NCBI GenBank assembly: GCA_947385955.1
Contig: CANDNA010000001.1
Span: 167,065 to 231,064 of the forward strand
Source: an uncultured Clostridia bacterium
GTDB taxonomy: Bacteria; Bacillota; Clostridia; Lachnospirales; Lachnospiraceae
DNA length: 64,000 bases
Reading direction: 5' to 3'
Of this stretch, positions 1 through 26,029 are shown piece after piece. Made by a program: the position numbers and the translations under genes. Within the stretch, counting starts at the first letter, position 1. The number at the start of each line of letters is the position of its first letter. A model generated the notes under the pieces. That model was not told the DNA's origin. It made no database searches and was given only the letters and a program-made list of their open reading frames with translations.

Positions 1-1742
1 GCCTGTATGATCCTCCGATATACTGCCGAAAGCCGCGGAAAAGGCTCTTCACTTCCGGGTTTTACCGCCACCCTGATACCTCCTCCTTCTACTGCAAACG
101 CTCTCACTTTATGGATGCTCAGCCCCGGAATCTGCCGGATCAGCACTTCATAGTCCTCCTGTGTTACCAGCACGCAGCTCTTTCGGATATCCGACGCAAA
201 CCGGCGGCCCACCGCTTCCACAGTCTCTTCCGCCCTGCCGCCCCTTCCTGTAAAAGGATTGTAGAAAACGGCCTGATCTTCTGACGGATTCAGAGAGAAT
301 CCGTTTTCTGCCCGTATGTTGCCTCTCTCTCCCTGATATACCACACAGGCACACAATGATAACCGGGCTTCTTCATACGCTCCCGCATCCTCAATCCGTA
401 CGGCGCCTTCTTCTGCCAGAAGAGTATACCGAAGTCCGTCCCGCTCCTTTTCCCCCGGCCTGTAAAACTGATATTTTTCTCCGCCGTCCGATGTTTTCAG
501 ACAGGCAGAAAGGACAAACGTATCTCCCAGAATATGACACAGGGGACGCAAAGACAGTGTTTCTCCCAGATATCCATAAATACGGCCGATCTGATAATGG
601 GACAGAAATTCCGGTCTGCGCAGTACCAGTACGGCGCAGGGCTTTCCTGCCCCGCTCTCCCGGACCAGTCCTTCTCCATCCAGCGTAAAACGCCATGTTC
701 CCAGCTCTTCCCGCTCCCGCCAAAACCATCTTTTATTGTCATCTTCCAGCCGGGCTTCCCCGGCTTCTTCATATCTGTAATAAAATCCATCCCGCTCCAG
801 TCCGTATACGGTCAGCTCACAGGTTTCCAGCATGGCATTTCTGACAGAGAACCCCTCTGCCATCTGAAATTCCAAAGTTGCTGCCAGCGTATCTTTCTGC
901 CTGACCGGAAACAGAAAATCCAGAAAAAACCTGGCCCGGGGCGGGCTGTCATATTCCGCCCGGTCCAGACGGCACCGAAGCGTATATCCCGTCCCGCCAA
1001 ACCTGGGATCGGCGCTGCCTTCCATCTCCGGCATCTTAAGCCTGATCAGACCGTCCTGCAGAAAAGCCCCGGTCCCGTCCTGGCAGACAATCCGGCAATA
1101 TCCGCCTTTTGTATACAGGCTCCAGCTCAGATCGGCAAACAGGCCTCCTGCCGTTTCCGGGATCCGGTTTCTGGGAAAAGCCGGCGCTGCCTTCATCCAA
1201 ATGGTAAGCCACTCCCCCGGCCCCGGCAGCCGCTCCAGTATAAAATAAAGACAGTCCCCGGCCTCCGGCCTGCTGCCAAATAAAAGCACACTGCCGGGCG
1301 TCTCTTTCTCCAGCCCTGTCCCGATGCTTCGCAGATTTCCGTCCGTTTCCAGAAACAGTCCCGTCAAAGCGCTGCCCCTTGTATCCACTTCCTGCTCTGT
1401 TTCAAAGCATAAACCGCCGGCATACAGTTTTTGACCGGGCAGCAGGCAGTCCGGTCCCTCTGTTCCCCGCCGTGTCAGCCACACACTGGCGGCCTGTCCC
1501 TTTTCCCTGTAAAAACCGGCCAGGCCGCAGAGCATCTCCACCGCCTGGCTGCTTACCTGGTACAGTCCGCTCCTCTGCAGTGCCTGAAAAGCAGTGAGAT
1601 TTTCCAGAATGGCAATCCCCGGATCCGATACATGATAATTGGTCCACTCACTCCGGTAGAGAAGGATCTGTGCCATAGCCTCCTGCATCATCTCTTCCAG
1701 TTCTTTTATATTGTCAGCTTCTTCTCTCCTCTTACTCAGCAT
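1..1742 (-). CDS. Partial CDS (N-terminal ~580 aa in window; continues past the left edge): large structural protein immediately downstream of baseplate-J, in the position of Afp12 / gpI or a fibre-proximal baseplate component. Function not recognisable from sequence.
   Basis: Hand translation of the minus strand from ATG 1742..1740 (MLSKRREEADNIKELEEMMQEAMAQILLYRSEW...) gives an unbroken open frame to position 1. It is the one minus frame with no reported short ORFs. The overlapping plus-strand ORFs look like GC-rich shadow frames. The ORF track would omit it for lack of an in-window stop. Confidence 0.5.
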   Translation of the reverse strand, partial: MLSKRREEADNIKELEEMMQEAMAQILLYRSEWTNYHVSDPGIAILENLTAFQALQRSGLYQVSSQAVEMLCGLAGFYREKGQAASVWLTRRGTEGPDCLLPGQKLYAGGLCFETEQEVDTRGSALTGLFLETDGNLRSIGTGLEKETPGSVLLFGSRPEAGDCLYFILERLPGPGEWLTIWMKAAPAFPRNRIPETAGGLFADLSWSLYTKGGYCRIVCQDGTGAFLQDGLIRLKMPEMEGSADPRFGGTGYTLRCRLDRAEYDSPPRARFFLDFLFPVRQKDTLAATLEFQMAEGFSVRNAMLETCELTVYGLERDGFYYRYEEAGEARLEDDNKRWFWREREELGTWRFTLDGEGLVRESGAGKPCAVLVLRRPEFLSHYQIGRIYGYLGETLSLRPLCHILGDTFVLSACLKTSDGGEKYQFYRPGEKERDGLRYTLLAEEGAVRIEDAGAYEEARLSLCACVVYQGERGNIRAENGFSLNPSEDQAVFYNPFTGRGGRAEETVEAVGRRFASDIRKSCVLVTQEDYEVLIRQIPGLSIHKVRAFAVEGGGIRVAVKPGSEEPFPRLSAVYRRIIQ

Positions 1743-1746
1743 CCCC

Positions 1747-4722
1747 TTATCCTCCGCGCACATAAATCTGATGTGCCCCGTTGCAGCACACTGCAAAAGG
1801 ATTGCCCGCTGCTTTTTCAAACGGCATCTCGTGCAGCCCCTTCTCATCCCGGCGGGCCGCTGTAACGGCATACCGTTCCACATAGCCATCCTGTCCTATG
1901 CCATGCAGCATCATACCAATCTGCTCTTCTGTGGGAAATTCCCCGATCTGCCGCCCCTCTCCCGGCCCGCTTCCCGGTTCCAGATACGCCTCTATCTGCT
2001 CCAGATACCGCCGCCTCACAGATATCCCCTCTCTGATATCCGGGATCTGCAGCCACAGCTTTACACTGACTTCCACAAAATCCGGCGCCTCGATACAAAG
2101 TTCTCCTTCCCGGCAGCCTGCCTCACACTGTCTGTCAAGTACGGTTTTCAGTTCCCTGCGCAGGCGGTAAAAAGAATGCATACCGTCCCGGTAATCCCTC
2201 ATCAGAACGACCAGATGAATCTGCCGCTCCTGCACCCTGCCCTGCCTGTCCACACCGCAGATACAGGCTGCCTGTGCCACATCCTCTGAAAATCCCAGCG
2301 CCTCTCTCTCATAATCATATTCCGATACCAGCCTTCTCCTGCTGCCGATCAGATGACTGCTCCGCCAAAGCGCCCGCTGTGTCCGCTCCAGGTCACTGCC
2401 GCCGAATCCGGCCGCCGGGTTTTTCACCTCCCGGACAGACTGCACATTGCCGTAAAAGCCGTCAATGCTGCCGGGCTCCACATTGCCCAGACTGCCCCTG
2501 CAGCTTTTGCGAATCACCCGAAACGCCGTATCCGCAGTTTCTCCGGGAATGCGGACCCGGATACCGTCGCCGAACAGAAGCCTGTTGTTGATCCGGTCAA
2601 CCTGATACAGCCGTTCTCCGCCCTCTGCCTCCAGAAAATGGTCGGCCTCTTCCCATTTTACATAAAAAGCCGAAATTTCTCCCCGGCTGTCATATTCTGC
2701 CTGTACCGTATCCGGCCGGTTTTTCAGCATTTCTTCCATCTCCCTGGGAGCAAGCCGGCGTTTTTCATTGACCCACACCTCTGCCTCCAGCAGATTGTCC
2801 CCATAAAGCGGAAACTCCATATCCGGCCGGGCCGTATCCAGATAATAGTCCTCTGCCGCGGCAGTCTCCACATTGTGCGCCATCACTGCATTTGGCAGGA
2901 TCTCTTCTATGAACTCCCGAAAGCGGCTGATTTCCTCCCGGCTTCCGTTTTCATCCCGCAGCCTGAGCCAGCAGCGTTTTACCCCTTCCAGCTCCGTCAG
3001 CCCCATATCCGACGGAGGTTCAAACATCACAATACCCGAATGGCTCAGATTCCCGGTCCCGTCCCTTACCCACAGTTCCTGAAACCCTCTGCCGGTACTG
3101 TATTCCCACAAAATCCTGCCTTCCCGTCCGTTCTCTTCCCGGCGTAACTTAATATACAGGCTGACAGGCCCCTGCCGCCATACCTGGTCAAATCCCAGAT
3201 ACAGAGCATTGCCCGGATAAGGGAACGGGAGAAATACCGGATGGGAAATGCCGTTTTGTAAAAGCGGCAGCAGATCTTCATACCGGGCGCCGCACACCCT
3301 GAAAAGCCCGTCCGGTTTTACCGTCTGCCCCTCATAGCTGTAACAGATCTGCAAGTTCCGGATCACCGGAATGAAATGGACTGCCGGCCGCATATAGCAG
3401 TGATCCGACTTAAGAATCCACAGCCGCAGGCAGCGTCCCTGATAACCGTCCATCTGCAGCGCCTGCCAGTCATGAGGCGCATAAAAGGAAAAACGCTGTT
3501 TTCCTGCCTGTTCCCGTGCGCCAAACAGCAGTTCCGGATTCCCTTCGGTATGCAGTCTTTTCCAGCCCGTCCCGTTAAAATAAGCGAATCCCACTTCCTC
3601 TGCCGCACACATCCAGGGCCGCTCATCTGCCCGGTACCTGGGAATTTTACGGATCAGCGGCAGCGGCTTTTCCTCCTCTTCCCGCCTCAGTGCAAAGCAT
3701 TTTTCTTCAAAAGACAGCACAAATTCCAGTTCTATCAGCGCCCCTTTTCTGGAAAACACCTCATCCTGTCCGATATAGCATTCCCGGTACAGGGCCAGCT
3801 CTTCTCCAAAGGGCCGGAAACAATCCACATCCTGTTCAAACATTTCATCGGAAACATACTCTGCCTTTCTCCGGCCCGCATCCCCGAACAGTTCCACCGA
3901 CTTTATGGAAATCCCATCGCCGGGCATAAGCTGATGCAGTATCACCGCCCCGGTTTTTTCCCCGTAAAGAGGCAGCCTGCCAAAAGTCCCTTCCGTACGA
4001 AGGATAATCCGGTCTCCTTCCCGCCTTACCTGCTCAACCTCCCTCAGGCCTGTACCGCTATCATACAAAAAGCGATACCGCCTTTCATCCGAAAATAAAG
4101 AGGCCAGCTCTCTGGCAGACTTTTCACCCGAAAACCGGATACCTGCCTGCATACCGGCCCTGTCAAACAGATCTCCATGATAAATCACCAGCTCCTGCTT
4201 CCAGATCTCCCGTCCCTCTTCCTCCGGCCCCTGTCCTTCCGTCACAGGAAACGGCGCCCATGTTTTCATCTCTCCCAGATAAGAACGGATACTGGCATGC
4301 CCGCAGGATATTCCCACAATATCGGTCAGGGAAACACCCGACACAAACAGATCCTGCATCGTTTCAAAAATCAGAGGTTCCCCCTCCTTTGCCCTGGCTG
4401 TCAGTTTCGTGGCTTTTCCCACTACAGCGCCGCTTCTGTCCCGGGCCTTCATCACCACGATGCTCTGCGCCGCCCTGGCAGGCCGCAGCGCCATTCCCAT
4501 CAGATCCGCAAACATGGTCCGGAACCGGGAAAAGGAGCCGTCAAACAGACGTATCGTTTCCTCCGTCTGCTTTGCATAGATCATTGCGATAATCGAACCG
4601 ATGTCCGGGTTTTCTTCGGAAAATTTCCACTCAGGCACGTAAGAAGCCGCCAGCTCCCTGATCTGTCTGCGGATTTCTTCCGCTCTTCTCTGATCCGGCA
4701 CAGATCTATCTTCTGCCGCCAT
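1747..4722 (-). CDS. Baseplate J-like protein (T4 gp6 / P2 gpJ / Afp11-like), 991 aa
   Basis: Large protein directly downstream of the gp25-like gene with overlapping start. Size and position are typical of the baseplate wedge gp6/gpJ family in contractile tail modules. Confidence 0.65.
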   Translation of the reverse strand: MAAEDRSVPDQRRAEEIRRQIRELAASYVPEWKFSEENPDIGSIIAMIYAKQTEETIRLFDGSFSRFRTMFADLMGMALRPARAAQSIVVMKARDRSGAVVGKATKLTARAKEGEPLIFETMQDLFVSGVSLTDIVGISCGHASIRSYLGEMKTWAPFPVTEGQGPEEEGREIWKQELVIYHGDLFDRAGMQAGIRFSGEKSARELASLFSDERRYRFLYDSGTGLREVEQVRREGDRIILRTEGTFGRLPLYGEKTGAVILHQLMPGDGISIKSVELFGDAGRRKAEYVSDEMFEQDVDCFRPFGEELALYRECYIGQDEVFSRKGALIELEFVLSFEEKCFALRREEEEKPLPLIRKIPRYRADERPWMCAAEEVGFAYFNGTGWKRLHTEGNPELLFGAREQAGKQRFSFYAPHDWQALQMDGYQGRCLRLWILKSDHCYMRPAVHFIPVIRNLQICYSYEGQTVKPDGLFRVCGARYEDLLPLLQNGISHPVFLPFPYPGNALYLGFDQVWRQGPVSLYIKLRREENGREGRILWEYSTGRGFQELWVRDGTGNLSHSGIVMFEPPSDMGLTELEGVKRCWLRLRDENGSREEISRFREFIEEILPNAVMAHNVETAAAEDYYLDTARPDMEFPLYGDNLLEAEVWVNEKRRLAPREMEEMLKNRPDTVQAEYDSRGEISAFYVKWEEADHFLEAEGGERLYQVDRINNRLLFGDGIRVRIPGETADTAFRVIRKSCRGSLGNVEPGSIDGFYGNVQSVREVKNPAAGFGGSDLERTQRALWRSSHLIGSRRRLVSEYDYEREALGFSEDVAQAACICGVDRQGRVQERQIHLVVLMRDYRDGMHSFYRLRRELKTVLDRQCEAGCREGELCIEAPDFVEVSVKLWLQIPDIREGISVRRRYLEQIEAYLEPGSGPGEGRQIGEFPTEEQIGMMLHGIGQDGYVERYAVTAARRDEKGLHEMPFEKAAGNPFAVCCNGAHQIYVRGG

Positions 4723-5131
4723 TTATCCCACCCTCTGTCTCTGCATACAAGTAAAAGGGGAACACCAGATTCCCTTCCGTGTCCTCTGCCGCCAGTGTAT
4801 AATCCATATGGATCAGCAGACAGCCCCGATCCAGCTTTTCCTCAATCCGGATTCCCACATCCGCGATCCGCGGCTCCTGCTCAAGCAAAGTCTGCCGCAG
4901 TTCCCTGGCCATCATATTCAGCCGGGTGACAGAAGTATCCATAAACGTATATGCCATAATCCTGCTGCCAAATTCCGGATGAAGCCACCGCTCTCCCCGC
5001 TGGGTCATCAGGATACTGTAGACCGATTCCCGGACACTTGCCTCACCGGAAGATACCATAAACCGTCCCGTTGCCCTGTCAATCTGAGGCGGGAATTTCA
5101 TTCCTGTTCCCAAAAATTCCTGTCCTGCCAT
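4706..5131 (-). CDS. Baseplate wedge protein gp25 / GPW-like (lysozyme-like fold), 141 aa
   Basis: About 140 aa. N-terminal motif MAGQEFLGTGMKFPPQIDRATGRFMVSSGEASVRESVYSILMTQRGERWLHPEFGSRIMAYTF is characteristic of the GPW/gp25 family. RBS AAGGAGA upstream. Confidence 0.85.
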   Translation of the reverse strand: MAGQEFLGTGMKFPPQIDRATGRFMVSSGEASVRESVYSILMTQRGERWLHPEFGSRIMAYTFMDTSVTRLNMMARELRQTLLEQEPRIADVGIRIEEKLDRGCLLIHMDYTLAAEDTEGNLVFPFYLYAETEGGINGGRR

Positions 5132-5144
5132 ATCCGTCTCCTTC

Positions 5145-5960
5145 CTACCCCATTTTGATGACTTTGCCGTCTATCTTCGTCATCCCGTCACTGCTCAGCT
5201 TCAGCGCCGAAGAGGCTTCCGTTATCACCTGTCCCCCGCTGATACGGACACTGCCGTCTGCCTCCATTCCGATACCGCCGCTGGTCTGCATCATCACCTT
5301 ATCCGCCTCCACCTTCACTGCCCCGCTTTCTCCGTCCAGTATCACCCGGATCCGGTCTCCTACCTGAACGGTCAGCTTCTTTGCCGCCCTGAGCTCTATC
5401 CGCCCGTCATCCGTAGTCATTTCCACATGACAGTTATTTTCCTTATCTGTCAGTATCATTCTGTGTCTTTCATTGTCCAGTATCATTTTATGGGCATCGC
5501 CGCTGGTAGCCACAGTGATCCGGTCCTCATCCCCCTCCTTTTCCTCTCCGCCGTCCTCAAACAGGATATAACTGCCGTTCCGGGTCATGATTTTTTTACA
5601 GGTATTTTTCTCGTCCGTGCATTTGCGTAAGAAAGCATCATTGTCCCTGGACAGACAGCCGATCACATAAGGCTTTTCTATATTACCGTTTTCAAAAGCC
5701 AGCAGCACCTGATCCTGTTTTTCAGGCATAAAACAGGCGCCCCATTCCCGGCCCCGGTACATGGCAGCCACCTTTGCCCATTTCAGTTCATTGGCCCCCT
5801 CATCCCGGACCGGGATGGTCACGCAGATACGCCCCGGCATTTTTCCACTGTAATTTTCCGCTACAATGCCCACCACCACACCGGTGATCCGCTCTCCTCC
5901 CAGTTCTGTCCTGGTCACCTGTTTTCTGGAAACCTCATCCACAATATCCAGCAAAGCCAT
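5145..5960 (-). CDS. Spike / baseplate hub tip protein (phage gp5 / gpV / VgrG-like OB-fold plus beta-helix), 271 aa
   Basis: Size, position between the gpD-like and gp25-like genes, and a C-terminal repetitive beta-strand region (VTIPVRDEG... GDRIRVILDGESGAVKVEADKV...). AGGAGG RBS. Confidence 0.7.
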   Translation of the reverse strand: MALLDIVDEVSRKQVTRTELGGERITGVVVGIVAENYSGKMPGRICVTIPVRDEGANELKWAKVAAMYRGREWGACFMPEKQDQVLLAFENGNIEKPYVIGCLSRDNDAFLRKCTDEKNTCKKIMTRNGSYILFEDGGEEKEGDEDRITVATSGDAHKMILDNERHRMILTDKENNCHVEMTTDDGRIELRAAKKLTVQVGDRIRVILDGESGAVKVEADKVMMQTSGGIGMEADGSVRISGGQVITEASSALKLSSDGMTKIDGKVIKMG

Positions 5961-5979
5961 CTTATCCCTCCTGACGCCG

Positions 5980-7131
5980 TTATGGTGAAATGGCGGCTGC
6001 CTTTCCTTTGATCATTGTCCGAAACCCGCCCGTATCACTGACAATATGCCGTACCTGCGTGAGATAAAACCGATTGTCCGCAGGCTGTCCCAGCCCTGTT
6101 GTCTCAATAAAACAGCCCGGCTTTAATTCCGGCAGCCCCACGCATTCCGCTTCCAGCGTTCCCAGCCGGTATCCCATTTCTTCCAGCATAAAACCTGCCC
6201 GGTACTCCGCCTCCTGCCTTGAAGCAATGCTTCCGTCCACATACACCCTTCTGGTCTGGGACAGCAGTGCCTTTGCCCGGTTTCCCAGAGAAATCCTGTT
6301 GGGATTTTTCAGGGAAGCCGAGATCACCCGGCCCCTGCCGGTATCCATTCCCCTTGCCTCCACGGTCTGTACCAGTCCGGTCATATCATAGCTGATTTCA
6401 TATTCCAGCATCCCCTCATCCGTCCCCAGATTCATCAGGCACACATCCGTATCCTTCGCCCTGCGGAATATGACATTACCGTCATCTATATAAAATTCAT
6501 AATTGAACCGTTTTGCAGCTTTTACCACAAACTCATAATCGCTCTCGGACACCATCTCTATGGTTTCTGCGCTCACATCCTCCGAAGCCCCTTCCGGCTT
6601 CTGATCCGGCGTAGCCGTTACCGACAACTGACTGTATATGCCGCAGGAAAGCATCTGCTGGTATGGGCTCTGGCCAAACAGCTCCCTGACCGCGTCACTG
6701 TAGCATCCGGCCAGAAGCTGCCTTGCATTACAGTTAGACATCATCAGTCCCTTGACATCCAGCGCCGTCATCCGCACATGGTGAGGGTCCCCTTCCCGGT
6801 TTACATACGATATCTGTGCAAGAAAGCCCCGGAACACCTCCTGCATTCTGTTTCCGTAGCCCAGCAGTACCCGCACCGGATACCCCAGATAAGCATACTG
6901 CTTCAACTGCTCCGTCCGGTACTGCCGCTTCTGCGCATCATAACAGCCATAGACAGAGAATGTAACAGCGGATGCCTCGAATCCGCTGCTCAGCTCCACT
7001 TCCAGCTCACTGACCATAAAACCGGCATTGTTTTCTCCCAGATTCCGCTCCTGTATCCATATCTGCACCAGGGGATATGTAAATTCCATATACTGGCTTT
7101 TCAGAGTTTCGTATGAATAAACTGCTGCCAT
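5980..7131 (-). CDS. Phage late control gene D-like baseplate hub protein (gpD family)
   Basis: About 385 aa, located upstream of the spike as in P2 / R-pyocin modules. Start placed at MAAVYSY (ATG 7131), which has an AAGAGGAGA RBS. The ORF-track start at 7182 adds a basic leader. Confidence 0.55.
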   Translation of the reverse strand: MAAVYSYETLKSQYMEFTYPLVQIWIQERNLGENNAGFMVSELEVELSSGFEASAVTFSVYGCYDAQKRQYRTEQLKQYAYLGYPVRVLLGYGNRMQEVFRGFLAQISYVNREGDPHHVRMTALDVKGLMMSNCNARQLLAGCYSDAVRELFGQSPYQQMLSCGIYSQLSVTATPDQKPEGASEDVSAETIEMVSESDYEFVVKAAKRFNYEFYIDDGNVIFRRAKDTDVCLMNLGTDEGMLEYEISYDMTGLVQTVEARGMDTGRGRVISASLKNPNRISLGNRAKALLSQTRRVYVDGSIASRQEAEYRAGFMLEEMGYRLGTLEAECVGLPELKPGCFIETTGLGQPADNRFYLTQVRHIVSDTGGFRTMIKGKAAAISP

Positions 7132-7182
7132 ATCAGTTCTCCTCTTAGGCTGGTCGCACTGCTTATATTGGCTGCACCGCAT

Positions 7183-7413
7183 CTGTCATTTGCTGAGGGC
7201 GACTACGGAGGATATTAGAAATTCTCAGTGCTTTGTTCTCTGTCAGCAATTTCCGGACAGGGATGTCCGGAAAAAGCCCATCTGAGCCTGGATGGCGAAT
7301 ATGGGCCGGTTGCGTTACCTGCCAAACCCTGCAGGAAAGCACTTAGAATTTCTTATGTCCGCAGTCCGGAGCCGGAAGCAAACGATTGATGCAGCGCAGC
7401 GAACATATCCGCT
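7183..7413. other. 230-bp structured non-coding spacer inside the contractile-system operon, with nested inverted repeats
   Basis: 19-bp inverted repeat TAGAAATTCTCAGTGCTTT (7216-7234) and AAAGCACTTAGAATTTCTT (7336-7354) with 17/19 complementary. Perfect hairpin TCCGGACAGGGATGTCCGGA (7252-7271). GCCCAT...ATGGGC palindrome near 7277-7310. Confidence 0.5.
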
Positions 7414-7983: not shown

Positions 7984-8004
7984 ATCTGCCTCTTTTTATC
8001 ACTG

Positions 8005-11163: not shown

Positions 11164-11185
11164 AGTCTGCTCCTTTTGCCCGTCA

Positions 11186-11647: not shown

Positions 11648-11859
11648 CCCGGTTCCTTTCTACCTGTCAGGCTTTAAGTCAAAAATATTCTTTTCCTGTT
11701 TTTCTTTGGAGGGATTCACTCTTTTATGAATCTCAGAAATCTCATGGCACCACCTTCTCCGGCTTTTATGATCCAGTTCCATCACTTCCCTGTTGTCCCA
11801 GTGGAAATAATAAGCGATAAATGCCATTTCCTGATAAAGCTGCTGCTCCGGATAGAGTG

Positions 11860-14870: not shown

Positions 14871-14889
14871 TGTTCCCTCCTGCAGCCCG

Positions 14890-17484: not shown

Positions 17485-17523
17485 ATCTGATCCTCTGTGC
17501 GCTTTCGCTTCTTTCCTCTGCCG

Positions 17524-19560: not shown

Positions 19561-19586
19561 GCCATTCCTCCTGCTCCCGTCCTTCT

Positions 19587-20744
19587 CTATATTTCTTTCT
19601 CTTCGATTAAATAACAGAAAAAGCCGCCGTTTTTTTCTGTGCAGAAAAAGGTATACAGATAGTCCGCCGTGTCAAACCGGTACAGATACATCAGATACTC
19701 TTTATCATATCCCGTTACCTGCATACAGTCCTCAAACAGGGGCGTCATCTCCATCCTGACCCCGCCGCCCATATCCTCCTGTCCGCCGGCCCGGTTCACA
19801 GCCACCGCATCCGGCATGGTCAGACGGGTATTTCCCTCGTAGACAGCCGGCCCCACAGCCCCGCTGACCTGCGGGATATTCTCCAGCAGACTGCCGCCCA
19901 GACAAATACTCTGACTGAGGACATAGATGCCGTCCACCGTCCATTCCCCGTCCACGGTTTCCTCCCCGTTATATGCCCTGTAAACAGCAGAAATCTCCGG
20001 CAGGAACACACAATATTCCCGGTCTGAAGTATAAGCCATCCGTCTGCCCGTGTAGAGAGACGCCATTTCCGAAGCGCTTCTGCCTGCCATTTCTTCATAC
20101 ACAATCCGGTCTTTTTGGAAGCTGCCTTCATAAATCTGCTTCCCGCTGCCGTTATACAGTATCCCATGTCCTTCTTTTTGTCCTTTGGAAAAACCGCCTT
20201 CATATTCGATCACACCGTTCTCACGATATAAAGTCCCCTCTCCGTCAAACTGGTTTTCCATAAAATCGCCTGTATACCACAGGATATTGCCCGGATAATA
20301 CCGCTCGCCCGATCCGCTGTACTGGTTTTGTGAAAAACCGCCCCGGTACACCAGATCTCCGCCCGGCGCATACAAAACACCGTTTCCATTGGCCGCGCCG
20401 CCCTCTACTTCTCCTTCATAAGCCAGATAACCGGACCGTCCCAGAATCGCCACTTGTCCGCTTTTAAACCGCAGCGGCAGCGCATTGTACCGATAAACGC
20501 TCACCCCGTCAGTTACCGTATCCGAACGGGCAGGCAGGCAGGCAAAGATCACCCACAGACTTCCCAGCCCCAGAAACGCCAGTGCCAGAACGGCCAGTCT
20601 CCTGGCAATCATCCAACCGCCAATGACCATATAATCCGCTTTTCCCCCGGGCCTGATGTGCGGCAGACAGCTGCCGTATTCCCTGCACTTTTCTCTGATA
20701 TAAGAAGGCTTTAACCGGTTCGGAATCCTACTGAAACAGTCCAT
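19587..20744 (-). CDS. MORN-repeat membrane protein
   Basis: At least 6 MORN-like repeats (YEGEVEGGAANGNGVLY, YRGGFSQNQYSGSGERYY, YTGDFMENQFDGEGTLY, YEGGFSKGQKEGHGILY, YEGSFQKDRIVY...) after a TM segment LAVLALAFLGLGSLWVIFACL. Start chosen at MDCF (ATG 20744), which has an AGGAGAG RBS. Confidence 0.7.
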   Translation of the reverse strand: MDCFSRIPNRLKPSYIREKCREYGSCLPHIRPGGKADYMVIGGWMIARRLAVLALAFLGLGSLWVIFACLPARSDTVTDGVSVYRYNALPLRFKSGQVAILGRSGYLAYEGEVEGGAANGNGVLYAPGGDLVYRGGFSQNQYSGSGERYYPGNILWYTGDFMENQFDGEGTLYRENGVIEYEGGFSKGQKEGHGILYNGSGKQIYEGSFQKDRIVYEEMAGRSASEMASLYTGRRMAYTSDREYCVFLPEISAVYRAYNGEETVDGEWTVDGIYVLSQSICLGGSLLENIPQVSGAVGPAVYEGNTRLTMPDAVAVNRAGGQEDMGGGVRMEMTPLFEDCMQVTGYDKEYLMYLYRFDTADYLYTFFCTEKNGGFFCYLIEEKEI

Positions 20745-23367
20745 AAAGCATCTCTCCTGCATGTATTGTCTCTGTCATCTTTTCCTCACAGGCAAACAGA
20801 TACCATCTGGCCGCCGGATCCTTTGGACAGCTTTTTACCAGTTCCATAAACCCATCCGCCGCTTCCCGGAACATGCCTCTCTCATACCGATCCACCGCTT
20901 CCCGGAATGCCTCCGCCGTTTCGGCCTTCTGTTCCCTCTCCGTCGTTTCACAGGCTTCCAGCACTTCGTACAGGGCAAAACATCTTTCGGAAGACGGCTT
21001 TACAAAGCCCAGATACCGGATCTGACCATATCCGTCCAGTCTCTCTTTTGTCTCCTCTGTAATCACCACATGCACCCCCAGTCCTTTCAGATCATCCATA
21101 TATGCGGACAAAAGCTCCAGATCCCGGGAAATCACAAAGGGACAGGTCCGGGCCGCACTGCCGGCCAGACCGCATATGCAGGCTCCGCTGTGCAGCAGCA
21201 CAAGCGGCCGGATCGGATACCTCTGATCTGCCCGTTCCCGCAGCCTCAGGATACCTGTCACAGCAAAACGCACTGCCTGAGCCGCCGTCAGTTCCGGTTC
21301 CTTATAGATCACATTCACAGATTCCAGCATATGGCCGGTCAGCAGCACACCGCCTGCCATTTCATTGCATCTGCCGACGCATTCCAGCAGACTGTTCAGA
21401 TATCGTATGTACTCTCCTGCCCCGCTGCTTTGCAGAATCACCTCTTTCTCCGCCACCGAAACCACGCCTGCCGTGGCCTGTACCGATACCGATTCCCCTA
21501 CCGGTACCTGCTCCAGTGTCTCTTTCCCAAACAGACTTTCAAACCCGTCCGGGGTAAATCTGGCATAGTACTTTACCACATTACCGCGGGAATATTCCTG
21601 GGCCTGCAGCGCTTTGCACATACGGTGCAGCGCGACCCAGATCCGTCCGTATTCATTGTCCGGAAACTTTTTTTCCGGCAGGTCGTACATACCGCCTGCC
21701 ACCCGTTTCATATAATAGGCCGCCGTTTTGACCGGACGGATAAAATGATATAAGATCAGCAGATTCAGCACCGTGGAAATCACGCCATAGATACAGGCCC
21801 ATTTCAGGCTGCTGCCCCACATCTCCCGGCTTCGTTCCTCCAGATCATACAATGTGGCTTTCCGGATAAAATAAAGATTTTTCCCTTCGGCTTTGTTAAT
21901 ATACACCTGATACCTGCGGCCCTGAAAGCTGCAGACCCCGCTGGCTTCACCATTTTCCTGCGCCTCTTTCAAAAGCTCCAGCGTATCCCTGCCATGACAG
22001 GCATACAGGCTCCGCCCGCTCACACAGTCTTCCCCATTGAGCACACAGGCATGTTCTCCGTCTGCATATACAAGCTCCGAAGAAAATTCAATGATTTTAT
22101 CCTGATCTTTTACCAGTACGCCCACCAATGTGCCGTCCACCGCATCAGCCCATTCCGTGTCATAAAAATCCAGTCCGCTCACATGGTCCAGACGGACACC
22201 CCTGTCATACATCAGTTCGACGGTTTCCATCGTCCCGAATACCTGATTGCTGATTCCCCGGCTCTCTTCCAGATATCCTCTGGAATGACGGTAAATATAA
22301 ATGGTAAGCAATACAATAAACATCATATTGACTGCCACAACACTGCCCATCATCGTCCGGATAACCGGGCGGAACTTCTGCTTTCTGTACAAAAAACAAA
22401 AGAGACATAAAGCGGTGAAAAGATAGAGAACGCTCCAAAGAGCCGCCGCCTTCCATCCCACATCCCACAATACCGGCCAGCCATACCCGATCTGGCTGCA
22501 ATCCATTCCCGTTTTCTTTTCACAGTCTGTCAGAGTATGGCTGTAGTCCCTGCTCCTGACAAGGGCCACGGCCTGACTGCCGCCCTTCAGACAGTCTGCC
22601 CCCAGCAGCCCGGAAGCCTTTATATTACAGAGGCTGCGGCTTTCTCCCTGTTCCAGAAACCACAGAGCATCCTCTTCCCCGGTGGTATACAACAGCCCGC
22701 CGGAAGAAATCTCCATCCACATTACCCGGCCGGCTGTTTCCTGTGGGAAAAAGCGGTAAGATTCCCCGGTAAAAAATCCCAGCGCCCCGTTACTTTGCAG
22801 GACATACAGGCGCTTCCCGTCAAAAGCCGCACTCACCACTTTATGTCCTGCCGGCAGAGTACGCCTCATCTCTTCTGTCAGCGGCGCCATGCCCTGTCCG
22901 GTCAGATCACAGGAATACAGGATCACTTCCCATTCCACCCGGTCCAGAGCCGTCAGATACAGCCGGCCTGCGGCCACTGAGGATGACGTAATACAGAGCT
23001 GGTTGCCGTAGTCCAGGCTGCCCACTGTTTTCTCCCGCTTCCACTCATCGTCTATCTGATTTACCGTAATCCGGCTGGTCCCGGCTCCTTCTTTCTGATG
23101 AATCAGCAAAAGCCCGCCGTCAGGCGTGGTTTTAAAACTGCTGACCGCCGCCGTAGGGCCATAGGCCCTGACCATCGTACCCGATCCGTCTATTTCATAC
23201 AGCCTGCTTCCGTAGTCCCCATTCTCCACCAATATCACATTTCCCTCATCCGTCAGCTCCACATTGGGAAATACATTGCTCAGATTCGGTTTCTGAATAC
23301 GAAAAATACCGATGACCGTGCCGATATAGGCCAAAACGGCTGTCACTGCAAATATGCTCTTTTTCAT
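20728..23367 (-). CDS. Membrane sensor-like protein, ~880 aa: N-terminal signal-anchor, extracytoplasmic beta-rich domain, two TM regions, and a C-terminal domain resembling a degenerate class-III nucleotide cyclase followed by a TPR-like tail
   Basis: Start chosen at MKKSIFAVTAVLAYIGTVIGIF (AGGAGAA RBS). TM segments lie near residues 350-420 and 600-620. The cyclase resemblance (VVKYYARFTPDGFESLF...LHSGACICGLAGSAARTCPFVISRDLELLSAYMD) is weak and the catalytic residues appear substituted. Confidence 0.35.
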   Translation of the reverse strand: MKKSIFAVTAVLAYIGTVIGIFRIQKPNLSNVFPNVELTDEGNVILVENGDYGSRLYEIDGSGTMVRAYGPTAAVSSFKTTPDGGLLLIHQKEGAGTSRITVNQIDDEWKREKTVGSLDYGNQLCITSSSVAAGRLYLTALDRVEWEVILYSCDLTGQGMAPLTEEMRRTLPAGHKVVSAAFDGKRLYVLQSNGALGFFTGESYRFFPQETAGRVMWMEISSGGLLYTTGEEDALWFLEQGESRSLCNIKASGLLGADCLKGGSQAVALVRSRDYSHTLTDCEKKTGMDCSQIGYGWPVLWDVGWKAAALWSVLYLFTALCLFCFLYRKQKFRPVIRTMMGSVVAVNMMFIVLLTIYIYRHSRGYLEESRGISNQVFGTMETVELMYDRGVRLDHVSGLDFYDTEWADAVDGTLVGVLVKDQDKIIEFSSELVYADGEHACVLNGEDCVSGRSLYACHGRDTLELLKEAQENGEASGVCSFQGRRYQVYINKAEGKNLYFIRKATLYDLEERSREMWGSSLKWACIYGVISTVLNLLILYHFIRPVKTAAYYMKRVAGGMYDLPEKKFPDNEYGRIWVALHRMCKALQAQEYSRGNVVKYYARFTPDGFESLFGKETLEQVPVGESVSVQATAGVVSVAEKEVILQSSGAGEYIRYLNSLLECVGRCNEMAGGVLLTGHMLESVNVIYKEPELTAAQAVRFAVTGILRLRERADQRYPIRPLVLLHSGACICGLAGSAARTCPFVISRDLELLSAYMDDLKGLGVHVVITEETKERLDGYGQIRYLGFVKPSSERCFALYEVLEACETTEREQKAETAEAFREAVDRYERGMFREAADGFMELVKSCPKDPAARWYLFACEEKMTETIHAGEMLYGLFQ

Positions 23368-23396
23368 CTTCCGTTCTCCTGCCTGTATCTGCCGGG

Positions 23397-24260
23397 TTAT
23401 TGCAGCAGCGACTCTGTGCCGATTGTCTGAAAAGAATTGTGGAACAGCCGCAGGAAAGGGATTTCTCCCCAGATCATCTGAGAAATCACCATACAAAGCG
23501 CAATCCCTGCCAGCAACAGGCAACCGATTACAAAGAGCCTGAATATCCCATGCCGATGGTTTTGAAAGGCCCGGCCCAGCCGCTTTCCGAATCTGACAAG
23601 CTGCCCGCTCTTTTTCCCGCTTCCTGCAAACCGCACATCCTGATACAGTTCCCCCATATGGGTATAGCTTCTCCGGTCCAGCTTGCGCTCTATCAGCATC
23701 CTGCAGATCCGTCCCCGTCCCTGTTCCTCTTCCAGCATCACAAGAAGCAGCTCTCCACAGGCCCCTGTACAGTCCCGCTGCCCCCGGCGGGCATCATACC
23801 CGGCCAGATCCAGCGAATAGCCTATCCGTACCCGTCCGTCCCGTTCCAGGTGGATCTGATCCTGCATAAGCGCCAGATACAGCAGAGATTCCGGCATCCT
23901 TACGGCCATGCACTCCCTGACCAACCCCTGCCATACCTTCCTTCGTTCCTCCGCATCATATCCTTCTCTTTGGTAAAACCGGCACAGAGGCCGCTCCGGA
24001 ACATAAGGAAAAGAAAAACACATGCGGGAGCCCTGAAAAAAGCATTCCACATAAGGTGTATCCATCTCCTGCCGCTCCTTCTGAAAACGGCAGAAAGCCT
24101 CCAGAACCTGACGGGCGACTCCCGGCTCCCGGATCAGCCACACCGTATAACATTCTTCTCCGCCGCCGTCCTCCCGTATACAGACCAGTACATCATTGAC
24201 CCTGCCTCTGAATACTTCCCGGATGCTGAAAAGGCGCATCGTACCTGTCTCCAGTATCAT
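23397..24260 (-). CDS. Hypothetical protein with C-terminal TM helix, 287 aa
   Basis: ORF with a GGAAAGGAACG RBS. C-terminal hydrophobic segment LFVIGCLLLAGIALCMVISQMIW. No recognisable domain. Confidence 0.5.
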   Translation of the reverse strand: MILETGTMRLFSIREVFRGRVNDVLVCIREDGGGEECYTVWLIREPGVARQVLEAFCRFQKERQEMDTPYVECFFQGSRMCFSFPYVPERPLCRFYQREGYDAEERRKVWQGLVRECMAVRMPESLLYLALMQDQIHLERDGRVRIGYSLDLAGYDARRGQRDCTGACGELLLVMLEEEQGRGRICRMLIERKLDRRSYTHMGELYQDVRFAGSGKKSGQLVRFGKRLGRAFQNHRHGIFRLFVIGCLLLAGIALCMVISQMIWGEIPFLRLFHNSFQTIGTESLLQ

Positions 24261-24283
24261 AGACGTTCCTTTCCGCTTTCTTT

Positions 24284-26029
24284 TTACTCCACAATCATAT
24301 AAGCATAGGTATCAATCTGGGGCATATCCGCACAGTAGATATGGATTTCATACAGTCCGCTGCCGGCAGGCGCCGTATACATCCCATCCTGGGAAATCCT
24401 GCCGCTGCCGCTTTCCGTCAGTTCATATACCAGGCGGCACGGCTCCATCCTGCAAAACAGAATATCGATATAACAGCTCTTCCCCGCCTCCAGCCTGACC
24501 GTAGGCATCCGCGGCACGATACTCATCTCCGAACAGTCTGCGGCCAGCCTGCTCTCTTCCGTGGAATGGAACCGCACAGCCACCCAGTTCAGCAGCAGCA
24601 CAATGCTCCTCTGCTCCCCTTCCAGCCGCGCCGCCACCTGAAAGCTTCCTTTTTCATGGTATACTTTGACCGCCGTTTTCACCCAGCTGTGGTCCTGCTC
24701 CCGGAACAGGTCGCTGTCGCCGTATATAGTACTTTTCACACTGCTGCCCATCACATCCGTTTCTTCCAGACAGGCCACTCCCACCTGTACGAATACTTCT
24801 CCGGCGCCCAGTCCATGCAAAATCTCCTCCGAAAAACAGATATCCCCCCGCTTCATATTCACATCCAGCGGAATCTCCAGTGTACCGTTTGTCATCAGAG
24901 GCATTTTGAAAGGCTCCCCAGGCGCCGCTGCCTGTACCGTTTCCGCTCTTTCCTCCATCCGTTCCCTGCCGGCCGGCGGAGCGAAACATGCCATATACTG
25001 CTGCCTCTCCGCTGATTTGGCCGGAGGCGCAATATATCTGCGCCTGTCTGTTACCGATGCGATCACATACGCATCCCCTGTACGGAACATTCTGATCTCT
25101 GCCAGCAGAAGTCCTTCCTCATCCTCTCTCCCGACAGATTCCAGATTTTCCTGCGCCGTCTGAGACAGCGCCATCTGCTCCGGTTCCAGACCGGTGAAAC
25201 AGATCTGCAAAGAGGCATCCTCCTTCACCGGCACATCATACTCTCCTACAAAAGCCTGCCCGCTTCCCCGCTTCCACAGAATACTGCCTGTGTCCGCTGT
25301 GCTTTGCTGTGCCAGAACCCAGTAATCTTTCCAAAATTCTTCTCCCTGCTCCAGAAAAATGTCCTGCATACCCACAGGCAGTTCATGCTCTCCTGTCTCC
25401 GTCACAAATGCGGGAAACTGAAGAACCCCTTCCAGCGACAATGATTTCCCGGCCCCGCTGCACTTTACCACTCTTACCCGGATCCGGACACGCCGCCCTC
25501 TGCACACAACCTTTGGCACACTGATCAGTACTCTGAAATCCTCCTGCTCCAGAAACACCGCTTCCTCCAAAAAGGCAGGTGTCTCCCGGAACACTTCCCC
25601 GGCCTCTGCCAGGAAAAGCTGATATCCTTCCCGGATCCGGTTACATTCATAATGTTCTTCCTGGCCTTCCTCTCCCATCGCAAACACCGGATGGACAGAC
25701 TCCTCCACATAACGTATTCTGAGCTGAGCCCGCTCTCCTCTGACGGTTTCAAACCCCTCAATGGCCGACAGCTTTCTGGCCACAGAAGCATGCAGGATCA
25801 TCTCACGTCCTCCGTCATCCAGTGCCGCGCCTTCTTCCACCAGCACAGTCAGATCATCCAGCCCGCTGACTTTCAGCCCGCACAGAACCCCCGGCCCATA
25901 CAGCATACGGTTCAGGAATCTCCTTTTATTGTTCATATAAAGCTGCTCTGCCGTAAAATCCATTGATGCCAGCATTTTTCCCGCATAATAACGGTTTCTT
26001 TCAAAAGGGAACCATTGTTTATGATTCAT
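24284..26029 (-). CDS. Hypothetical protein, first gene of the contractile-system cluster, 581 aa
   Basis: ORF with a GAAGAGGGAAAGAAGG RBS, immediately downstream of an AT-rich promoter region. Its N-terminus (NRYYAGKMLASMDFTAEQLYMNNKRRFLNRMLYGPGVLCGL) looks like a conserved-domain start, but I cannot place it. Confidence 0.5.
   Translation of the reverse strand: MNHKQWFPFERNRYYAGKMLASMDFTAEQLYMNNKRRFLNRMLYGPGVLCGLKVSGLDDLTVLVEEGAALDDGGREMILHASVARKLSAIEGFETVRGERAQLRIRYVEESVHPVFAMGEEGQEEHYECNRIREGYQLFLAEAGEVFRETPAFLEEAVFLEQEDFRVLISVPKVVCRGRRVRIRVRVVKCSGAGKSLSLEGVLQFPAFVTETGEHELPVGMQDIFLEQGEEFWKDYWVLAQQSTADTGSILWKRGSGQAFVGEYDVPVKEDASLQICFTGLEPEQMALSQTAQENLESVGREDEEGLLLAEIRMFRTGDAYVIASVTDRRRYIAPPAKSAERQQYMACFAPPAGRERMEERAETVQAAAPGEPFKMPLMTNGTLEIPLDVNMKRGDICFSEEILHGLGAGEVFVQVGVACLEETDVMGSSVKSTIYGDSDLFREQDHSWVKTAVKVYHEKGSFQVAARLEGEQRSIVLLLNWVAVRFHSTEESRLAADCSEMSIVPRMPTVRLEAGKSCYIDILFCRMEPCRLVYELTESGSGRISQDGMYTAPAGSGLYEIHIYCADMPQIDTYAYMIVE

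Follow-up and report, generated by a model that had tools for sequence, protein, structure and literature searches.

A dense run of contractile-tail genes raises two questions: whether the genes are a phage remnant or a contractile injection system (CIS) in its own right, and where the syringe would act. Both are posed by the window (the whole 64 kb stretch of DNA that was analysed). Open reading frames and profile matches define a single, tightly packed operon on the minus strand of positions 1-26029, and the contractile-tail genes that the original prediction had placed there are present, with profile matches far beyond chance. The region is most of a chromosomal CIS operon in a spore-forming, gut-type Gram-positive Lachnospiraceae host; that this operon encodes a bona fide non-phage CIS is almost certain. 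By lineage it belongs to a kind already known, the Afp/PVC-related 'type II' CIS of monoderm bacteria and archaea. Its unusual trait is a set of five membrane or cell-surface proteins, one of them with a TolC fold, that are conserved within the CIS operon and hint at a syringe that works attached to the cell envelope.

The contractile sheath (Cis2, 565 amino acids, 12765-14462; minus strand, like all operon genes below) matches the Pfam families Phage_sheath_1 (1e-17) and Phage_sheath_1C (1.4e-18). Many sheath homologues from Lachnospiraceae chromosomes are 66-83% identical, and the best phage sheath reaches only 31.5%. The nearest solved sheaths in the PDB are those of an archaeal membrane-anchored CIS (9ezm, 6e-108) and then of the Streptomyces cytoplasmic CIS (8bky, 1e-99), and the wording 'eCIS / cytoplasmic CIS' chosen in the original prediction was thus apt; the sheaths of Anabaena tCIS, PVC, AlgoCIS and Afp rank behind these two (1e-43 to 1e-53), and the pyocin sheath matches at 1e-14 only. 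There are two gp19-type tube proteins: the main inner tube protein (Cis1, 12239-12733; Phage_T4_gp19, 1.7e-31), with 79-89% identity across the diverged loci L009-L013, and a paralogue (11186-11647) that matches the same family with its C-terminal part only (5.8e-9).

The tail assembly chaperone (120 amino acids, 11860-12222; phrog_508 'tail assembly chaperone', 3.5e-6) is encoded at the position of P2 gpE and lambda gpG. In frame -1 relative to its gene lies a DUF6760 reading frame (11660-11890; orthologues are annotated PF20546), and a slippery heptamer, A_AAT_TTT, is found at 11875-11881. The frame relation, the heptamer and conservation of the peptide that frame -1 encodes ahead of the first ATG all hold in five loci; the DUF6760 frame is predicted to provide the 'T' portion of a G/GT-like product of frameshifting. 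Two proteins that had been described as 'U/X-position' proteins (7414-7983 and 8005-8571) do exist, and their identity is that of tube-initiator-like CIS_tube proteins (PF19266, 2.4e-14 and 5.1e-14, respectively). The protein of 863 amino acids encoded at 8572-11163 is assigned to the tape measure (Cis14-like by position), as originally predicted, solely because of its size and because its gene lies between those of the tubes and those of the initiators; no family match was found in Pfam, NCBIfam or PHROG. Its gene contains a 27-nt tandem array (9597-9809), and a 9-amino-acid indel distinguishes the proteins of different strains. No effector was identified; alternatively to its role as tape measure, the 863-residue protein could be ejected and is a candidate cargo, and a tape-measure-related effector has a precedent (PMC11126660).

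Among the baseplate genes, the gpD/gp27-like hub (383 amino acids, 5980-7131) matches phrog_52 (tail, 1e-10) and phrog_196 (baseplate hub, 8e-5), and NCBIfam VgrG_rel below the cutoff (3e-11); its start was set, from sequence and gene calls, to an ATG with a ribosome-binding site within a reading frame that is open up to 7182. The gpV/gp5-like spike (Cis8-like, 5145-5960) has an OB-fold (Phage_base_V, 1.6e-16), and the spike tip is a DUF4280 PAAR-like protein (14487-14912; 3.9e-22) that probably starts at 14870 and would then have 127 amino acids, the length at which its orthologues are called. The sheath initiator is gp25/GPW-like (Cis9, 4706-5131; GPW_gp25, 3.7e-17). Two different wedge proteins are encoded. 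The large Baseplate-J/gp6-like Cis11a (991 amino acids, 1747-4722) has no match in Pfam, but matches TIGR02243 (4.4e-22, below cutoff), Streptomyces Cis11 (PDB 9gtp_1K, 5e-12) and Pvc11 (6e-3). The second Baseplate-J-like protein, Cis11b (1-1742), extends beyond the window, which holds 580 of its 702 amino acids, and is the large structural reading frame that had been seen to run off to the left: the fragment matches Baseplate_J (3e-4) and, below cutoff, TIGR02243 (1e-14), its full-length orthologue in locus L004 matches Baseplate_J at 1.2e-12, and the copy in the conspecific contig L006 matches Streptomyces Cis11 (9gtp_1K) at 4e-6. The sheath, both gp19-like tubes, the DUF4280 protein, gp25 and the gp5/VgrG-like spike of the original prediction are thus borne out by Pfam, its gpD-like hub by the two PHROG families and its baseplate-J protein by TIGR02243 and Streptomyces Cis11.

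An AAA+ ATPase and a DUF4255 cap had been expected to the left of position 1, and this is where both were found. Two conspecific contigs, L006 and L007, overlap the window with 99% nucleotide identity and extend leftwards past position 1 with, in this order, the remainder of Cis11b, a protein of 354 amino acids, a Pvc16_N (DUF4255) cap (199 amino acids) and an AAA+ ATPase (728 amino acids), followed by agrB, a 40-amino-acid ORF and a VWA protein. The 354-residue protein is a Tail_P2_I-like Cis12, as its orthologue in a related locus (about 75% identical) matches Tail_P2_I; cap and ATPase likewise occur in a locus that is about 75% identical. Pvc16_N caps and AAA+ ATPases are hallmarks of CIS, and finding both next to the left edge of the window supports the CIS identity of the operon. 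No capsid, portal, terminase, integrase, holin or endolysin was detected among the main ORF products of the 64 kb window or among all products of the 5.3 kb of conspecific DNA to its left, just as the original prediction had it for the tail cluster, and no tRNA was found at the locus.

A P2-like myovirus prophage remnant or an R-type tailocin, with unrelated chromosomal neighbours as upstream genes, would explain the P2-like gene order (sheath, tube, chaperone with -1 site, tape measure, hub, spike, gp25, J and I-like protein), the separate gpD-like hub and gpV-like spike, the Tail_P2_I-like protein and the slippery site of the chaperone (compare E/E+E' of P2). However, unlike P2 or R-type pyocins, the locus has a cap and an ATPase, and head, DNA-packaging, lysis and integrase genes are all absent from the scanned DNA, as are tRNAs. 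The distance of the sheath to phage sheaths also argues against this origin, and in every locus CIS genes enclose the upstream genes, with cis13 on one side and the DUF4280 gene, or the cap gene in L013 and L014, on the other; none of the six upstream proteins matches a PHROG of known function. A prophage or tailocin is therefore highly improbable and this reading is effectively refuted, in line with the stand-alone CIS without lysis cassette that had been proposed.

With Afp, PVC, AlgoCIS and the thylakoid-anchored tCIS of Anabaena, the operon shares sheath, tube, gp25, Baseplate J, spike, PAAR-like tip, cap and AAA+ ATPase. It differs from these systems in having a single sheath gene instead of three, distinct hub and spike proteins, a chaperone whose gene bears a frameshift site, and two Cis11 paralogues, and in sequence it is far more distant from them than from the systems of archaea and Streptomyces.

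The interval 1-26029 does not consist of tail genes throughout: about 11 kb of it (14890-26029) hold a Cis13-family gene and then five conserved envelope/signalling genes. The bitopic protein (23397-24260) has a cytoplasmic domain, a transmembrane helix (residues 236-268) and an invariant C-terminal tail (IGTESLLQ); it matches kinases of the PDB in register, at E-values that are not significant (0.07-0.3), and is a possible pseudokinase with a transmembrane helix. The HAMP sensor-like protein (879 amino acids, 20728-23367) has four transmembrane segments and two predicted outside domains, followed by HAMP, a conserved domain of about 200 amino acids and a TPR-like tail predicted to be intracellular. 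Its family profile matches the TM2-HAMP region of chemoreceptors (1.6e-5), and its homologue P0342 matches Pfam HAMP (8e-7); the C-terminal module is common to 2521 cluster representatives, and the C-terminal domain resembles a degenerate cyclase by eye only, without statistical support. The third protein (19587-20762) has an N-terminal transmembrane helix and MORN repeats (Pfam MORN, 1.5e-9). The fourth (17524-19560) has a signal peptide or anchor, a TolC/outer-membrane-factor (OMF) fold and two C-terminal FN3/Ig-like domains: when its AF2 model (pLDDT 77) was compared with the PDB by Foldseek, the top 44 matches were all OMF channels (E 8e-8 to 5e-4), Pfam OEP matches weakly (0.011), and a 68% identical homologue is named 'TolC family protein' by NCBI. 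As modelled, this product of a Gram-positive bacterium has the fold of the Gram-negative TolC channel. The fifth protein (14890-17484) starts with a transmembrane helix (residues 9-28) and, after a long stretch of unknown fold, ends with a Cu_amine_oxidN1 domain (1.8e-5); it is predicted to be extracytoplasmic, and its gene is syntenic wherever a related locus covers this stretch (9/9).

The module is flanked by cis13 and the DUF4280 gene, and its five genes either overlap or lie about 19-39 nt apart. Their order is kept in all nine related loci that were retrieved with enough DNA to span the module (L001-L003 and L009-L014), across which identity of the TolC-like protein drops to 35%. In L013 and L014, the cap gene is located inside the module stretch; L012 has no HAMP sensor, indicating that this component is dispensable. 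When the TolC-like protein was the sole query, all five metagenome loci fetched were CIS operons. Judged from gaps and overlaps, kept gene order and the loci obtained with the TolC-like query, the envelope module belongs to the CIS operon. It had been overlooked in the original prediction, together with the Cis13-family gene that opens the operon, the two CIS_tube initiators, the chaperone with its conserved -1 frameshift site and a TwoAYGGAY RNA element located within the operon.

Homology to solved CIS structures suggests how the particle would be assembled. The gpV-like spike with its DUF4280 tip and the gpD-like hub would nucleate the baseplate, with wedges made of gp25, the two different Cis11 paralogues and the Tail_P2_I-like Cis12. 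The gp19-type tube would be started by the two CIS_tube proteins and set or filled by the 863-residue protein and the chaperone pair, the latter probably made by -1 frameshifting; the sheath would polymerise around the tube and the Pvc16_N cap and the AAA+ ATPase would complete the assembly.

The anatomy of the operon points, tentatively and with a little less than even probability, to a particle that is coupled to the envelope of its own producer rather than to a free extracellular dart. With all links between module and particle taken from gene order, the Ig-like Cis13 at the baseplate rim, or else the Cis11/12 wedge, would dock on the cytoplasmic domains of the HAMP sensor and the bitopic protein, and these two would decide on the time of firing. 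The extracytoplasmic MORN, TolC-fold and Cu_amine_oxidN1 proteins would make or prime a place in the thick cell wall where tube and spike pass outwards, driven by the contracting sheath. With about 3.5 nm, the lumen of a trimeric TolC would not admit the CIS inner tube of about 8-9 nm, and a literal conduit would have to be another kind of oligomer. CIS identity, assembly and envelope-coupled mode together form our best explanation, which we rate at even odds as a whole. Docking of a baseplate on an envelope complex and firing gated by a membrane sensor resemble the canonical T6SS (TssA-M; TssJLM; PpkA/TagQRST) as a functional analogy only: profile searches of the operon products detected no TssB/C two-part sheath, no ClpV and no TssJ/L/M families. 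TssK-like and TssG-like features are described for eBAP3 and Tail_P2_I proteins (PMC12923769).

The closest solved relative by sheath, the CIS of Halogeometricum borinquense ('archaeal T6SS', 9ezm), has its closest Cis11 relatives in Bacillota, and its cluster contains two cis11 genes and an upstream membrane anchor gene (PMC11566945). Two cis11 genes, cis12, cis13 and membrane-protein genes upstream of the core are thus common to both systems; in contrast, the haloarchaeal anchor is a single protein with six transmembrane segments in an S-layer envelope, whereas the locus here, known from its genes, has five envelope proteins, including TolC-fold, MORN and HAMP sensor proteins, and a thick peptidoglycan wall.

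Cis13 can also be read differently. This fibre-like or connector protein (581 amino acids, 24284-26029), the product of the first gene of the operon, has a Cis13/eBAP-type N-terminus and Big_2/macroglobulin (C3b/MG)-like Ig domains. The only PDB match of its family profile, not significant, is the N-terminus of the crown protein of Anabaena tCIS. According to PMC12923769, Ig domains like these are the domain class of the eBAP3 'C3b/BIG' 'fibres', which extracellular CIS of Bacillota and Actinobacteriota combine with a Tail_P2_I adaptor, and target binding after release therefore fits the domains of Cis13 equally well. In such a classical eCIS, particles would assemble in the cytoplasm, be released by lysis of a fraction of the producers, bind targets by their Cis13 'fibres' and inject a payload, with the five envelope proteins serving release, regulation or self-protection instead of anchoring; the full Afp/PVC-type core, cap and ATPase included, is in agreement with this. 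However, no lysis cassette was found among the scanned products of the operon and its flanks, and Cis13 shows similar conservation in its C-terminal part (54-57%) and at its N-terminus (55%); its distal part is not hypervariable, unlike typical receptor-binding tips. Moreover, cis13 heads the operon, while about 90% of catalogued fibres are encoded downstream of Tail_P2_I (PMC12923769); the consulted passages of this catalogue say nothing of an envelope module within the operon. The extracellular reading leaves the five conserved membrane/surface proteins without a role, and the nearest characterised relatives, of haloarchaea and Streptomyces, are not extracellular (PMC11566945, PMC12237407). 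We consider it rather unlikely.

Still less probable is a self-directed device like CISSc of Streptomyces coelicolor (type IId, 8bky/9gtp), with free cytoplasmic particles that fire into the membrane of their own producer when stress or development gives the signal. Sensing this signal would be the task of the HAMP and kinase-like membrane proteins, as functional analogues of CisA, the membrane protein needed for CISSc firing (PMC12237407), and the outcome would be a regulated death of the producer, such as lysis of the mother cell or release of eDNA in a spore-former. As far as genes can tell, much is alike: the sheath, two Cis11 paralogues that both match Cis11 of CISSc, a wedge logic of two Cis11 positions and one Cis12, a monoderm host, and membrane proteins with cytoplasmic domains that the operon encodes, as the Streptomyces operon does CisA (PMC12237407), and sensor-type domains. 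The host is a spore-former with CspB (57856-59607), and Agr-type quorum-sensing genes flank the operon. In contrast, CISSc is devoid of fibres and Cis13 and employs a single Cis11 twice, its CisA is a single bitopic protein encoded downstream of the baseplate genes, and TolC-like, MORN or HAMP proteins are not reported there (PMC12237407). The three accessory proteins predicted to be extracytoplasmic, the TolC-fold protein among them, are hard to explain with a purely inward-acting device, and the envelope-coupled, outward-firing particle remains the reading we prefer.

Upstream of the operon, on the plus strand, is a divergent gene pair (26337-28026) that encodes a membrane protein with HATPase_c domain (26337-27215; 1e-14) and, within 27124-28026, an SH3_3 protein (5.5e-8). 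The pair also adjoins the operon in L009, L010 and L011 and is possibly an associated regulator and wall-binding pair.

The minus strand carries about 20 co-directional genes from position 26029 down to position 1 (ORF listing), and the gaps between them are mostly shorter than 40 nt or are overlaps, with the sole exception of 230 bp at 7183-7413. Profile searches identify a phage-type, single-chain sheath (12765-14462, Pfam Phage_sheath_1 and Phage_sheath_1C), two inner tubes (12239-12733 and 11186-11647, Phage_T4_gp19), a PAAR-like tip (14487-14912, DUF4280), a gp25-like protein (4706-5131, GPW_gp25) and a spike (5145-5960, Phage_base_V), all on the minus strand. The same strand encodes two CIS_tube initiators (7414-7983 and 8005-8571, PF19266), a hub of 383-400 aa (5980-7182) that matches the PHROG tail and baseplate-hub families and, weakly, NCBIfam VgrG_rel, and a tail assembly chaperone of 120 aa (11860-12222, PHROG tail-assembly-chaperone family). 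There are two baseplate-J-like proteins, Cis11a (991 aa) and Cis11b, the ORF at the left edge: both match TIGR02243 (putative baseplate assembly protein) and, in the baseplate structure 9gtp of the Streptomyces CIS, the Cis11 chain. The tail-like genes named in the original prediction (sheath, tubes, DUF4280, gp25, spike and baseplate J) are corroborated; the upstream third of the interval 1-26029 is an accessory envelope module that had gone unrecognised.

The operon runs off the left edge of the window, and conspecific contigs show what follows. The gp25 protein is on record with identical sequence in several contigs, one of them in NCBI assembly GCA_949879865.1; they have about 99% nucleotide identity to the window and therefore come from the same species. 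Identical-sequence look-ups for the sheath and Cis11a found no records. Past position 1, two conspecific contigs (L006 and L007) complete Cis11b, which comes to 702 aa, and continue with genes for a 354-aa protein, a Pvc16_N (DUF4255) cap (199 aa) and an AAA protein (728 aa); next come agrB, a 40-aa ORF and the gene for a VWA protein. Scanning the genome collection with the truncated left-edge protein retrieved only one locus. The gene order is the same in L004, a Lachnospiraceae MAG with a 75% identical Cis11b: here, the counterpart of the 354-aa protein matches Tail_P2_I (2.7e-6), the cap Pvc16_N (1.7e-27) and the ATPase AAA (9e-30). The AAA+ ATPase and DUF4255 cap that had been expected to the left of position 1 are therefore both there, outside the window and directly adjacent to it, in L006/L007 as well as in L004, and none of these loci has head or lysis genes at this position, which would have pointed to a prophage or tailocin. 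Measured against the Cis1-16 core set of dbeCIS and the eCIS literature, the sheath, tube, baseplate set, cap and AAA+ ATPase of an Afp/PVC-related CIS are all present. The interpretation as a stand-alone CIS is supported, and assembly would, by homology and without controversy, follow the pathway of the solved CIS structures.

Among the scanned products of the 64-kb window and of 5.3 kb leftward, there is no capsid, portal, terminase, integrase or replication gene; the window has no tRNA genes, and no lysis genes were found in or near the operon. Signalling genes of the right flank (26-64 kb) encode histidine kinases and response regulators, among them an AgrC/AgrA-like GHKL-LytTR pair; other products of this flank are uracil-DNA glycosylase, a TPM phosphatase, an SPFH protein, clostripain, a D-Ala-D-Ala carboxypeptidase, the CspB germination protease, HtpG, DHFR and an RNase J-like protein. 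The flank is ordinary chromosome of a spore-forming member of the Clostridia. A myovirus prophage was rejected, as head, packaging and integrase genes are missing from the scanned products and the flanks are housekeeping and regulatory. An R-type tailocin or diffocin was rejected too: no lysis cassette was found, the locus has both cap and ATPase, and the pyocin sheath matches only at 1e-14. Neither do the operon proteins include Pfam or NCBIfam families of the canonical T6SS (i-iii), namely TssB/TssC, ClpV or TssJ/L/M.

The operon is highly conserved. The sheath has many homologues with 66-83% identity, and all named ones are from Lachnospiraceae; for the tubes, identity is 79-89%. These values span many protein clusters (90% identity) of Lachnospiraceae genomes and metagenomes. 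The best phage sheath among 50,697 phage records has 31.5% identity (Bacillus phage BCD7). CIS sheaths in the PDB match at about 1e-32 to 6e-108: the best solved structure is the CIS of Halogeometricum borinquense (9ezm, 6e-108), followed by the Streptomyces CIS (8bky/9gtp, 1e-99; 8bl4, 4e-97), the thylakoid-anchored tCIS of Anabaena (7b5h, 4e-52) and various entries of PVC, AlgoCIS and Afp (1e-31 to 1e-52), while the R-type pyocin (3j9q, 1e-14) and T4 (various entries, about 1e-8) are far weaker. By these similarities, the operon belongs with the haloarchaeal and Streptomyces systems and not with the Afp/PVC group. The haloarchaeal CIS is attached to the cytoplasmic membrane and acts in contact-dependent antagonism; its cluster includes two cis11 genes, its Cis11 has its nearest relatives in Bacillota, and an upstream conserved membrane protein correlates with the mode of action (PMC11566945). 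The Streptomyces CIS is cytoplasmic and has no fibres, its wedge consists of two Cis11 copies and one Cis12, and firing requires the membrane protein CisA (PMC12237407). CIS loci of Firmicutes have already been catalogued (PMC8213781, PMC12923769) and the operon core is a member of this known kind; searchable literature yielded no description of a CIS from Lachnospiraceae.

Five proteins with TM segments or signal peptides are encoded within the operon, between cis13 and the DUF4280 gene and with operon-like spacing; none of the five matches a PHROG family of known function. The 287-aa protein has a single TM helix besides its cytoplasmic domain and ends in the invariant sequence IGTESLLQ. Its weak PDB matches are all protein kinases, in register (E 0.07-0.3), but even with a four-sequence profile the kinase match stays sub-significant (E 0.07), so the kinase-like reading is only a hint. 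For the 879-aa protein, which has four TM segments, a family profile matches chemoreceptor TM2-HAMP at 1.6e-5, and one homologue matches Pfam HAMP (8e-7). The C-terminal module of this protein is common to 2,521 cluster representatives and by eye resembles, we infer, a catalytically degenerate class III cyclase domain with TPR; a PDB search with the family profile returned TM-HAMP only. The third protein has MORN repeats and an N-terminal TM helix, and the 864-aa protein combines an N-terminal TM helix with a C-terminal Cu_amine_oxidN1 domain. No family was found in Pfam (E up to 10), NCBIfam or PHROGs for the 287-aa protein or for most of the length of the 864- and 879-aa proteins.

The remaining module protein (678 aa, 17524-19560) has a signal peptide or anchor; an AlphaFold2 model (pLDDT 77) shows two FN3-like domains C-terminal to a TolC/outer-membrane-factor fold. 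The model predicts the two-repeat, long alpha-helical barrel fold of the TolC family: the top 44 Foldseek hits in the PDB are all channels of the TolC, OprM or CusC type (E 8e-8 to 5e-4), with target-normalised TM-scores of 0.46-0.59. A 68%-identical homologue is annotated as 'TolC family protein' by NCBI; the Pfam OEP match is weak (0.011). Residues 81-101 and 319-339, where the hairpins of the family's full, 12-stranded outer-membrane beta-barrel would lie, are about 21 aa each and modelled with a pLDDT below 50; they are rich in aromatic and hydrophobic residues and nearly invariant across homologues (e.g. STFRWTPLLSF.FP). The host family is monoderm, and no efflux pump genes adjoin the gene. 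As a TolC trimer has too narrow a lumen to admit a CIS tube, the 678-aa protein is more likely to serve as a strut or anchor across the wall, or as a pore of different oligomeric state, than as a true TolC-type channel.

The order of the module is kept in all nine related loci with fetched DNA that covers it (L001, L002, L003, L009 and L010-L014), except that L012 lacks the gene for the 879-aa HAMP sensor altogether (982-2912). Five of the nine, L010-L014, are metagenome loci retrieved with the TolC-like protein as sole bait; here, the TolC-like protein has 35-47% and the sheath 63-69% identity. In two of them, the Pvc16_N cap gene and a gene of 257-271 aa lie between the homologue of the 864-aa gene and the DUF4280 gene (L013, 14997-16409; L014, 14478-15848), so that CIS genes enclose the module in another arrangement as well. 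We take conserved order and bracketing as strong evidence of a functional link between module and CIS, though not of any particular function. No description of an embedded module with TolC-fold, MORN, HAMP, kinase-like and Cu_amine_oxidN1 proteins was found in searchable literature.

In the literature searched, experimentally characterised CIS are from diderm bacteria, Streptomyces, cyanobacteria and haloarchaea, whereas the present host is a thick-walled Firmicute; an earlier survey found eCIS statistically depleted in mammal-associated bacteria including those of the human gut, with Bacteroides a mild exception (PMC8213781). We tentatively favour a CIS that is coupled to the envelope of its producer, a reading we hold at just short of an even chance, because the operon includes genes for five conserved membrane or surface proteins, because the nearest characterised relatives act at, or depend on, the producer membrane and because the operon has no lysis cassette. 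Conserved membrane-protein genes linked to the cluster are also a feature of the membrane-anchored CIS of haloarchaea, where Hbor_38620 is the anchor, and of Amoebophilus; the likeness is one of gene content. The Cis13 protein, encoded by the first operon gene (24284-26029), bears on the same point: it has Ig-like domains and fits the eBAP3 / C3b-BIG fibre class with Tail_P2_I adaptor of Bacillota (PMC12923769). This fibre-like protein and the adaptor would be compatible with an eCIS, whose particles are released from the cell and act on targets from outside. However, receptor-binding tips typically vary distally, whereas the C-terminal 200 residues of Cis13 are as conserved (54-57%) as its N-terminus (55%) and only the middle is variable (25-33%). 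The conserved distal part again favours envelope coupling and, with the lack of lysis genes in the operon and its surroundings, makes release as an eCIS rather unlikely.

A self-directed system like that of Streptomyces would agree with the similarities of sheath and Cis11, with the spore-forming host and with the sensor-type proteins. CISSc of Streptomyces coelicolor, however, has no Cis13 or fibre and has CisA encoded downstream of the baseplate genes; here, a Cis13-family gene is present and no gene for a bitopic, CisA-like protein was found downstream of the baseplate genes in L006/L007 and L004, where cis12, cap, ATPase and agrB are located instead. We regard a self-directed function as distinctly improbable. 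If, as we favour, the module anchors or gates the particle at the producer envelope, it would account for the way in which a CIS deals with a Gram-positive wall, and it would point to a widespread weapon for cell-cell interaction or a developmental device in one of the dominant families of the gut.

A more specific proposal is a Gram-positive counterpart of the T6SS in Lachnospiraceae, a docked CIS that fires through the thick wall into neighbours on a sensed signal. The rim of Cis13, Cis11 and Cis12 would dock the particle onto a dedicated trans-envelope complex, which would consist of the HAMP sensor, the kinase-like anchor, the MORN and Cu_amine_oxidN1 proteins and the TolC-fold protein as wall-spanning part. 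This proposal is speculative and on balance unlikely; if true, it would amount to an envelope apparatus not described before, with the TolC fold put to new use in a monoderm. Engineers of CIS delivery tools may also take an interest in the compact fibre and sensor parts.

The 863-aa protein (8572-11163) has no match in Pfam (E up to 10), NCBIfam or PHROGs. By position and size only, it is a candidate for the tape measure (Cis14); by analogy with Tme, a tape-measure-related effector of S. davawensis (PMC11126660), it is also a candidate cargo. No toxin domain was recognised in the operon proteins. The gene for the 863-aa protein contains a 27-nt tandem array of 7.9 copies (9597-9809) that encodes an E/Q/A/L-rich 9-aa repeat, and the conspecific copy in L005 has one extra 9-aa unit (872 versus 863 aa). 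Between conspecific copies, identity of the protein is only 96%, against about 99% for the neighbouring DNA; in relatives, its length ranges from 820 to 873 aa.

Near its end, five codons ahead of the stop, the chaperone gene has a slippery heptamer of canonical form (A_AAT_TTT, 11875-11881). The -1 frame is open from the heptamer and encodes a DUF6760 peptide (11660-11890). Heptamer, position and the -1-frame peptide preceding the first ATG are conserved in five loci from across the family (the window, L001, L002, L005 and L009), and a programmed -1 frameshift is predicted to fuse chaperone and DUF6760 to a product of about 187 aa. The predicted fusion is of the same kind as the frameshift products G/GT of lambda and E/E+E' of P2; a chaperone frameshift in a CIS was not found described in searchable literature.

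The gap at 7183-7413, between a CIS_tube gene and the hub gene, contains a full-length TwoAYGGAY RNA (RF01731, 112 bits, E 1e-19) at 7203-7367 on the plus strand, antisense to the operon. It is kept in the conspecific contigs L007 and L008, while L005 and L006 lack 131 bp (window 7191-7321), and it is absent from the relatives L001, L002 and L004. A transposed insertion was considered and rejected: no direct repeats flank the 131-bp strain difference, which has the look of a simple deletion.

Several observations concern the flanks. The agrB gene and the 40-aa ORF directly follow the ATPase gene (L006, 13958-14588; likewise L004, 9923-12107), and on the right, at a distance of 7-9 kb from the operon, are the genes for the AgrC-like GHKL kinase and the LytTR response regulator (window 32766-34999); with agr-type quorum-sensing genes on both flanks, the operon may be under density-dependent control. 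Beside cis13 is a divergent pair on the plus strand (26337-28026) that encodes a membrane HATPase_c protein, in which no HisKA domain is recognisable, and an SH3_3 protein; the pair is kept in the window, L009 (1864-3274), L010 and L011. Divergent promoter-like sites are found between cis13 and this pair (26063-26257). Further to the right, at about 54000-58000, the GC content drops to 31-36% compared with about 50% elsewhere; the genes in this stretch encode a 217-aa protein without assignment, an AAA_21/AAA_15 (AbiEii-type) ATPase (55222-56370) and a Schlafen AlbA_2/HATPase_c_4/HTH protein (56432-57733), and it looks like an acquired defence island.
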